In this document: piece by piece, positions 42 to 16,761 of the stretch
Layout of the letters: each line of letters starts with the position of its first letter
Numbering within the stretch: position 1 is the first letter of the stretch
Source: Eledone cirrhosa
Taxonomy: Eukaryota
Assembly (NCBI GenBank): GCA_964016885.1
Contig: OZ024746.1
Coordinates: 85,064,001-85,128,000, forward strand
DNA: 64,000 nt
Reading direction: 5' to 3'
Translations under genes and position numbers: made by a program
The notes under the pieces: model-generated
What the model was told of the DNA's origin: nothing
Seen by the model: only the letters and a program-made list of their open reading frames with translations
Databases searched by the model: none

Positions 42-45
<4 letters not shown>
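1..45. mobile_element. Partial copy (one palindrome arm) of TA-inserted family A
   Basis: gtcGAAACggcttgagctctaccGTCggggtcatactttttccta runs into (TA)n; matches arms of copies at 7372, 30179 and 35182. Confidence 0.8.
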
Positions 46-133
<88 letters not shown>

Positions 134-147
134 TATATATAGAATTG

Positions 148-225
148 ACTCCCTGATGAAGAAAGGAATTCTCCATGGTTTTGAACACTATTTATATCCC
201 CTTTCAGAAACTAATTAGTTGGAGT
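148..225 (+). ncRNA. Type I hammerhead ribozyme
   Basis: Stem I actcc/ggagt; CTGATGA 153-159; stem II gaaagg/cctttc flanked by single A; GAAA 207-210; palindromic stem III ACTAATTAGT; triplet GTT. Confidence 0.75.
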
Positions 226-669
226 GAAACTTAAGTAAGTAAGTTAATTATTATAATTTTCTTATTTTACGTCTTTCATATAATTGTTCTACATTTTTGT
301 ATTGAACCCCAAAGTTACTAAGACAAAACCTATATCTTGCTAGCATAAGTATACTTCTGTATAAATATGTTGGTAGATATACTAATTCTTTATAATTATC
401 TCAAAATTATTTGTTGAGCAAAAATTTGCCTGAATTACTGCTATGATTCATAGTAATAGTTTGGCTACTGTCTTTTTAACACCCCACTCCTCACTGATTA
501 ACCTCGGTGTCACGTGATTGATTCTTTTGAATTTGCCACTGACCGGGAAGGTAGTGAAATTTTCAGTGTCTTGAAATTTAGTCCGCGCTTGCTTCTTTTC
601 CATTCACTGAATTATTTTTGTTTGAGATCCCTGTGTCCGCCTATCGCCAGCGATCTTAGCAGAGAATTG

Positions 670-747
670 ACTCCCTGATGAAGAAAGGAATTCTCCATGG
701 TTTTGAACACTATGTATATCTCCTTTCAGAAACTAATTAGTTGGAGT
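670..747 (+). ncRNA. Type I hammerhead ribozyme (second copy)
   Basis: Same fold; CTGATGA 675-681, stem II gaaagga/tcctttc, GAAA 729-732. Confidence 0.75.
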
Positions 748-1039
748 GAAACTTAAGTAAGTAAGTTAATTATTATAATTTTCTTTTTTACGTCTTTCAT
801 ATATATATATATGTATGTATGTATATATATATATATATGTATTTTTTTTCGCGAGTCAGTTCTTTTGTTGTTACGGACTCCGCGGCTGAATTACCGGCCG
901 CTATCTTCAATTTGCAAAGCCCTTTAAACTGTATGTTATTACTCTGATGTTTTATACCTTATCGAGTGCTTGGCTGCACTTCTGAATGCATTCGTCGGCT
1001 TAGCTGCGGCTCGAGCTTCGAACATGGTGTACTTCCATT

Positions 1040-2552: not shown

Positions 2553-2970
2553 TTTAATTCGTCGAGCTAATTCAAATGTCGAGTAAACCCGGCTGCTATT
2601 TTTAGTGGTGTGAGTCTGCGAGACACGCTAAGTTCTGGTACCATGTGCGTTGTTATATATATGCACACTAACCAGTTTTTTAATATAATTAGAAGTGACC
2701 AGAATTCTAATAATTCTTCACCCGCTGATGAGCAAGGATTTGGTATTCCTCTTCACAATTAATATTGCGAAACAGTATTATCAAAACTGTCCGGGTGATT
2801 GGTAGTTACCACAATTCAGATTTGTATTTATTTCCTTGATTTATCCTTAATTGAGTCTGGCAAACCCTATTGTCTGTAGTTACTATTCTCTTCACCTTAG
2901 CGAATCTGTCCTTCTTACGATTTGAACACTATATCTATATGTCTGTGTTGGTTTTTTCTTTTTTGTTCAG

Positions 2971-2973
<3 letters not shown>
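2553..2973 (+). mobile_element. TA-flanked HHR-bearing insert (Penelope-like/retrozyme remnant)
   Basis: Unique sequence bounded by TA tracts, with a canonical HHR and an AT-rich 3' tail. Confidence 0.6.
2718..2798 (+). ncRNA. Canonical type I hammerhead ribozyme
   Basis: Stem I tcacccg/cgggtga; CTGATGA 2725-2731; stem II gcaa/ttgc; GAAA 2769-2772; stem III acagt/actgt; GTC triplet with predicted cut after C2791. Confidence 0.9.
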
Positions 2974-16504: not shown

Positions 16505-16575
16505 TATTTTATTATGCGCATTTCAAAAACAAATATCATCATGCAATAATATTTGTGTTTTCATCAGATAAAACA
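16505..16575 (-). ncRNA. Type I hammerhead ribozyme (minus arm)
   Basis: Reverse complement of 16691-16761; tcatcag at 16561-16567. Confidence 0.8.
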
Positions 16576-16690: not shown

Positions 16691-16761
16691 TGTTTTATCT
16701 GATGAAAACACAAATATTATTGCATGATGATATTTGTTTTTGAAATGCGCATAATAAAATA
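16691..16761 (+). ncRNA. Type I hammerhead ribozyme (plus arm)
   Basis: Stem I tgttttat/ataaaata; CTGATGA 16699-16705; long stem II; GAAA 16742-16745; palindromic stem III ATGCGCAT; triplet ATA. Confidence 0.8.

Follow-up and report, generated by a model that had tools for sequence, protein, structure and literature searches.

The window, which is the whole 64,000-nt stretch analysed here from the 3.0-Gb genome of Eledone cirrhosa (contig OZ024746.1, 85,064,001-85,128,000), carries a 663-base non-coding insert at 141..803 (Table 1). The insert begins and ends with direct repeats, 141-282 and 663-803, which are spaced 522 nt apart and differ at three places, namely the substitutions 192 T/G and 199 C/T and one 1-nt deletion. 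The second repeat keeps matching the first through 803, where it enters (TA)n at TTTCAT followed by ATATA. The GC content of the 522-nt unit is 33.5%, and no ORF was found in it; when the unit is read as a circle, the longest stop-free frame has 58 codons. The first-pass annotation had described near-identical hammerhead repeats 522 nt apart around a non-coding spacer, a second repeat stopping at this CAT/ATATA junction, and a palindromic stem III (ACUAAUUAGU, at 210-219), and all three descriptions agree with our results.

Table 1. Coordinates of the insertion, its parts and its flanks in the window
Feature	Position	Strand	Basis
Left flank: (TA)n at 44-93 followed by (GA)n and a short run rich in TA; microsatellite target in which no TSD can be resolved	44..140	.	
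Entire insert: copy of a non-coding hammerhead retroelement, 1.27 units long and truncated at its 5' end	141..803	+	sequence and family ends
5' copy of the terminal redundancy, pseudo-LTR-like; the start at 141 is a variable 5' truncation	141..282	+	scattered 5' starts in the family
Type I minimal hammerhead 1, predicted cut after U220	148..225	+	motif; compensatory changes in helix II across subfamilies
Predicted 522-nt cut-to-cut monomer, candidate circle; strong predicted fold, no ORF	221..742	+	fold z, frame scan
Fixed 3'-end site 1, CATATA, lying 62 nt beyond the cut; putative internal reverse-transcription start 1	277..282	+	52/115 chains
Conserved bulged hairpin GUUC-U...UU-GAAC directly 3' of end site 1; candidate RT-binding element	286..309	+	
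Fixed 3'-end site 2, TTTATA, lying 174 nt beyond the cut; here other copies end, as do the opposite arms of inverted insertions	389..394	+	50/115 chains
3' copy of the terminal redundancy, terminates at fixed end site 1 in (TA)n	663..803	+	
Type I minimal hammerhead 2, predicted cut after U742	670..747	+	motif
Right flank: (TA)n/(TATG)n target microsatellite, overlaps the last bases of the element	800..837	.	

In the first hammerhead, helix I is ACUCC/GGAGU (148-152/221-225), followed by CUGAUGA (153-159) and an extra A160; helix II is GAAAGG/CCUUUC (161-166/200-205) with a long loop, followed by an extra A206; and the 3' part consists of GAAA (207-210), the palindrome (210-219) and the triplet GUU. 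A160 and A206 form an A.A mismatch at the base of helix II, and A.A or C.A is counted against strong activity; the first-pass annotation names neither this mismatch nor the GUU triplet. The motif fits the minimal consensus of EN+ PLEs, CUGANGAH G..C GAAAN palindrome NUH, in the available part of PMC4209133 (Fig. S3), except for one more base, an A, before GAAA. One row of the same figure reads AGAAA, and U.U mismatches at the position before GAAA are described for PLE hammerheads in the available literature. A search of Rfam returned 46 matches at E<=1, which sit on simple repeats and none of which is a hammerhead family. When the genome was searched with the hammerhead pattern, 295 exact matches were obtained, compared with 1 for the reversed-pattern control, and the window hammerhead is therefore not a chance occurrence.

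Helix II keeps its pairing through changes on both sides at 2 of its 6 pairs (in 5 and 3 sequences, respectively) among 30 monomers of 72-100% identity. Its covariation score was 0.156, compared with 0.086 after shuffling, and lay above all 500 shuffles, with lower scores for the slid controls; kinship among sequences alone can push such scores above shuffles without any structure. Core conservation in alignment A1 was left out of the evidence, since it is biased by the anchor used for cutting the monomers. Because helix II covaries, the ribozyme fold appears to be maintained, and we believe that the hammerhead structure is probably under selection.

The predicted fold of the window monomer had z = -4.64, and 0 of 100 shuffles were equally stable. 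In 8 of 8 units, the sense monomer gave z values of -3.2 to -7.7 and the antisense -1.4 to -3.8 (12 shuffles each). The double-hammerhead fold was predicted to be 3.8 kcal/mol better than two single hammerheads and 4.8 kcal/mol above the MFE, and of its two helix I pairings one was well populated (0.43 vs 0.04). With the A.A mismatch at the base of helix II, the GUU triplet and a modelled fold above the MFE, the window hammerhead would be of a weak type. Studies have shown that PLE minimal hammerheads cleave poorly (PMC4209133, available part), and cleavage is reported for only 1 of 9 Xenopus retrozyme dimers in the available text of bioRxiv 2026.07.22.740005.

Tandem GUAAGU splice-donor-like motifs lie at 235-244, 15 nt past the predicted cut, and are conserved in most subfamilies. 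A splice-based route via this donor was considered and dropped, as no conserved acceptor was found by eye.

The family and its insertion ends

The 663-nt query gave 2,679 first-look candidates in the genome, 40 of which were scored, and the family copies proved to be dispersed over many chromosomes. A copy was present in 1 of 40 arbitrary 10-kb stretches, which is too few for an estimate of copy number. For the insertion footprint we used 71 non-redundant loci with 115 chains. The loci of this study are top matches, pattern matches or, for the arrays, picks by eye, a choice that over-samples long and multimeric copies. The 3' ends of the 115 chains fell at unit position ~142 in 52, at ~254 in 50 and elsewhere in 13; thus, 102 chains terminate in (TA)n at a fixed site either 62 or 174 nt beyond the cut, and the two sites bound a tail of 112 nt. 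The 5' starts are scattered all round the unit, and chain length varies continuously between 30 and ~1,460 nt, with a single 6.7-kb array beyond this range. Outward flanks began with (TA)n in 231 of 303 cases (overlapping loci included).

Both orientations, that is, an inverted arm, were present in 37 of the 71 loci. Among 34 adjacent two-armed insertions, a 142 end was paired with a 254 end in 27, two 142 ends were paired in 1, and an odd end was involved in 6. This count leaves out L011 and L126, and two further loci with non-adjacent arms also pair 142 with 254. Contigs from the sequencing runs X1, X4 and X5, the last of RAD-seq DNA, independently contain the family with its (TA)n junctions: (TA)n loose ends follow 282 in X1 and X4 and follow 394 in X4. 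The window locus itself was absent from these contigs.

The first-pass annotation had taken the length of 1.27 units as a signature, a view that we do not share: within the length continuum it has no special meaning and reflects random 5' truncation. The window copy is an ordinary, older, truncated member of the family, and we propose that its 141-nt redundancy is either a chance stop of copying or the remnant of a collapsed longer array. The genomic tandem multimers that the same annotation had predicted do exist, both in this family and in a sister family described below. Redundant copies within one locus carried the same subfamily alleles in 404 of 424 diagnostic comparisons, whereas 257 agreements would be expected at random, and their minor alleles had no 5'/3' bias (196 vs 212).

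Two loci deviate from simple insertion. At L009:2100-2620 a chimeric unit changes subfamily midway; since units of two subfamilies are joined there, template switching or recombination occurs. At L113:1400-1470 a family copy is fused through microhomology to the 3' UTR of a coding PLE, a one-off junction. One array of this family, L126:2675-9363 (G000:C1:152.49 Mb), comprises 12.6 units with period-4 higher-order repeats. Owing to this higher-order structure, we dropped it as evidence of a rolling circle and regard it as a retro-insertion turning into a satellite.

Relation to Penelope-like elements and retrozymes

Studies have shown that the anatomy of PLE insertions includes partial tandems, 5' truncation, an inverted 5' arm and an optional tail at one end (available parts of PMC8557442 and, for EN+ PLEs, PMC11167929), all of which have counterparts here. 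EN+ PLEs also share two internal reverse-transcription starts downstream of the hammerhead and a (TA)n target (available parts of PMC11167929 and PMC8557442). In the Poseidon element PAc, the tail lies between two internal RT starts, and both DNA strands are cut and extended (PMC11167929); the two fixed ends of the window family are therefore best read as putative internal priming sites. The 112-nt tail differs from the 30-40 nt given for EN+ PLEs in the available sources, and the window element, unlike EN+ PLEs, has no RT or endonuclease ORF. Analysed together, the fixed ends in (TA)n, the scattered starts and the inverted arms with one end each read as a PLE footprint, and targeting of (TA)n points to a Neptune- or Naiad-type enzyme (available part of PMC8557442). 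In our view, two informative features tie the element to target-primed reverse transcription by PLEs, its fixed pair of 3' ends in (TA)n and its inverted arms. We are confident that the window element is a PLE-mobilised retrozyme.

Judged by its sequence, the window family belongs to the animal non-LTR retrozymes and would behave as a non-autonomous PLE. It has at least two hammerheads, one per non-coding unit, and dispersed copies with marks of retrotransposition (fixed 3' ends, (TA)n flanks, inversions). The identification as a retrozyme in the first-pass annotation thus stands: the hammerhead unit is permuted, non-coding and arranged head to tail, as in retrozymes of the non-LTR kind. Animal non-LTR retrozymes, in the available parts of PMC7229834 and bioRxiv 10.64898/2026.07.22.740005, likewise consist of non-coding head-to-tail units with a type I hammerhead each, have low GC (<45%) and a strongly folded monomer, and range from monomers to multimers. 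The window unit of 522 nt is longer than the ~170-400 nt of PMC7229834 and falls within the 51-972 bp of the preprint. Its hammerhead belongs to the PLE minimal type, the loop of helix II being long and the base of this helix mismatched, whereas coral retrozymes, in the same portions of these sources, have the canonical loop-loop type. The circle of the window family is a candidate predicted from DNA, unlike the circles described for animal retrozymes in those portions.

MRC1 and the other non-autonomous PLEs of Chlamys (available part of PMC8557442) also have pLTRs and occur as multicopy head-to-tail insertions; most of them have no hammerhead, and their 3' ends are similar to those of an autonomous family, whereas no such family was found for the window family. 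A plant-type LTR retrozyme (type III hammerhead in LTRs, 4-bp TSD and GC >55% in the available sources) was rejected, as the window element has type I hammerheads, 33.5% GC and a permuted unit.

Mobilisation of retrozymes by PLEs through circles has been proposed and is a standing hypothesis in the available parts of PMC4209133, PMC7229834 and bioRxiv 10.64898/2026.07.22.740005, and according to the last of these the mechanism has still to be worked out. The available portions of PMC7229834 and of the 2026 preprint contain no maps of fixed 3' ends, (TA)n targeting, a one-end-per-arm rule or array haplotypes. Our literature search, which covered the preprint without its supplements, returned no description of the window family or of the arm-pairing rule in retrozymes. 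Retrozymes are already known; what stands out is the unusually clear insertion footprint of the family, more than the window copy. In young families, insertion ends, arm pairing and array haplotypes allow circular and linear templates to be tested against each other from DNA alone, and the stretch 286-309 and the two putative priming sites offer a candidate RNA signal and start points for an assay.

Template of the insertions

Any cDNA that starts 62 nt beyond the cut and is longer than 62 nt, as in the window copy, has to include the cut site. Since the cDNA crosses the hammerhead junction, the template would be a circle, a multimer left uncut, or a series of monomers between which RT jumped. 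A young sister family (L204, L232-L281; for example G000:C15:37,218,471-37,226,058) bears on this choice. Its unit of 554-557 nt (~555) is 72% identical to the window family and forms dispersed arrays of 2-13 units, and multimeric inverted arms occur. In 20 arrays picked by eye among 39 scored candidates, the divergence of 93 full units was 0.41% within arrays and 0.92% between arrays. Seventeen of the 20 arrays had a single haplotype (5,000 shuffles: mean 1.6, max 6), and 4 array-private variants were fixed in every unit of their array, 3 of them across both arms. Of 70 unfixed variants, 67 were confined to one array. All 12 intact two-armed arrays paired the two ends, a 13th being disrupted, and all 7 one-armed arrays used end 1; either arm of a two-armed array may be a multimer. 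In the four longest arrays, variants were shared between non-adjacent units, and the two arms of L275 differ at two sites. Given the periodic shared variants in these four arrays and in the 12.6-unit array, long arrays are not all fresh RT products.

The first-pass annotation had suggested that the terminal redundancy could come from reverse transcription round a circle. The sister arrays, judging by their haplotypes, fit copying round a monomer circle and support the suggestion indirectly, but homogeneous linear donors or later DNA duplication may account for them as well. We consider a circle the probable template for the window family. Our reading starts from what the DNA itself records, namely the unit and its hammerhead, the lack of an ORF, the family, the fixed ends, the scattered 5' starts, the arm pairing and the sister arrays, and we believe, with some reservation, that the dispersed non-coding 522-nt hammerhead units were inserted in trans by a PLE RT-endonuclease that copied them from a ribozyme-made RNA circle. 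In such a cycle, a tandem copy would be transcribed, two hammerheads would pair through their palindromic helix III and cleave, either slowly or aided by a protein, and a host ligase would close the monomer. The PLE protein would bind near the hairpin at 286-309 and nick (TA)n DNA, priming would take place inside the RNA at site 1 and, on the other strand, at site 2, and RT would run upstream over the hammerhead junction for a variable number of laps.

We rate as unlikely, yet worth weighing, that the same element and PLE enzyme used an uncut linear multimer from a few homogeneous master arrays, with a slow or dispensable hammerhead and arrays that grow as DNA. PAc uses unprocessed RNA, and its hammerhead mutants insert normally in the sole in vitro PLE study, in which the hammerhead was dispensable (PMC11167929); long arrays do have higher-order structure, and homogeneous masters would yield homogeneous daughters too. 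Such masters, however, would have to number at least six, each separately homogenised, in a family that is <1% diverged. The array-private variants are fixed in each unit, and unit-private ones are shared between arrays in only 3 of 70 cases. Linear copying can only shorten arrays, and the covariation of helix II argues that the ribozyme fold is maintained.

Still less probable is that the hammerhead cuts and that linear monomers serve as templates, with RT leaving each monomer at its 5' end and continuing at the 3' end of another. The chimeric unit of L009 and the fusion of L113 to a coding PLE 3' UTR do show switching, but the switch in L009 appears mid-unit, away from the cut. At the cut site, 12 of 13 matches (10 loci, all short copies) were true 5' junctions, compared with 4 true of 6 at a control 19 nt upstream and 13 true of 19 at the palindrome, controls of unequal detection; the palindrome count leaves no clear excess at the cut. 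The P values of 0.07 and 0.15 were computed with 5 control junctions, the true number being 4. L020 and L280 begin at the cut site but continue through a further hammerhead. A mixed RNA pool would, moreover, make mixed arrays, yet 17 of 20 sister arrays have a single haplotype.

Returning to the circular template, we speculate further, and tentatively, that the family and its sisters record rolling-circle retrotransposition, in which a dimeric PLE enzyme recognises one conserved hairpin on a monomer circle made by the hammerhead and primes both nicked DNA strands at two flanking positions (about -4/+108), and each of its polymerases copies multiple laps of this same circle. If this is true, two-armed, haplotype-pure arrays with one end of each type would result, and the hairpin would be a minimal portable signal for the PLE-driven insertion of any RNA circle into (TA)n.

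Search for a partner and other hammerhead elements

No autonomous partner of the window family was found in the ~1.3 Mb of selected loci. In the loci examined, no coding flank was shared upstream of the hammerhead, and the copies continued into the same 522-nt unit; the masked flanks of family copies shared only other elements behind (TA)n. The first-pass annotation had allowed that the unit might be only the end of a coding PLE, and these loci do not bear this out. It is very improbable that the insert represents no more than a coding PLE's 3' end (pseudo-LTR), or local satellite DNA duplicated without an RNA stage: an autonomous element with this pLTR could hide among the many non-autonomous copies, but the unit is circularly complete and without an ORF, 0 of the 30 best matches to the hammerhead repeat lead into a shared ORF, the shared flanks are other elements, and fixed ends, inversions and dispersal over many chromosomes are unlike satellite behaviour. 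The insert was also rejected as an autonomous Penelope-like element (RT + GIY-YIG ORF between pLTRs), its longest stop-free frame being the 58 codons given above.

The coding PLE families L061-L090 and L129-L142 were rejected as partners, since their 3' ends are unrelated and homology was present only in nested copies. The ORFs of two coding PLE families are presumably GIY-YIG-like; the peptide of L057 had no Pfam match, and among the Atlas neighbours of L062, GIY-YIG was present in 18-27% of members. The family L061-L090 is an abundant coding PLE with a GIY-YIG-like ORF and its own minimal hammerhead (GUU triplet, palindromic helix III). Its copies end in (TA)n at either of two 3' sites, judged by eye to be ~70 nt apart, and a GT donor-like motif directly follows its hammerhead.

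A radiation of other non-coding hammerhead families also occurs in the genome (L282-L311; L076, L103, L105, L111, L154, L189, L236, L245), with units of ~457-486 nt where measured. Several of them share with the window family the GUUC..GAAC hairpin, the two-end spacing and the mismatch at the helix II base, and hairpin and end spacing are common to several 460-560-nt families in the Eledone genome. The upper stems of the hairpin differ between the window family and the ~460-485-nt families, and the two ends lie at the same offsets. The stretch 286-309 is a candidate binding signal. The hairpin variant of the other families gave 2,968 motif matches in the genome, compared with 10 for the control, and 0 of 30 hairpin-motif loci were linked to an ORF.

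The window contains further elements of this kind. A second, unrelated type I hammerhead lies at 2718-2798 (CUGAUGA at 2725, paired helix III, GUC triplet); the element around it, ~2555-2971 (+), terminates in (TA)n at ~2971 and is likely a further copy of PLE or retrozyme type. An inverted pair of hammerhead-like motifs at 16505-16575 (-) and 16691-16761 (+), with a relative in L077, is typical of an inverted PLE-type insertion. Between (TA)n tracts, 845-1041 is a GC-richer island of 200 nt in which a degenerate hammerhead-like stretch is visible by eye; it may be a further truncated element. Positions 1-43 are the 3' end of another element, which ends in the same (TA)n tract as the left flank of the insertion. 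An inverted partner lies just upstream of it with a head-to-head junction (L127:5950-6045), and relatives of this element flank several copies of the window family.
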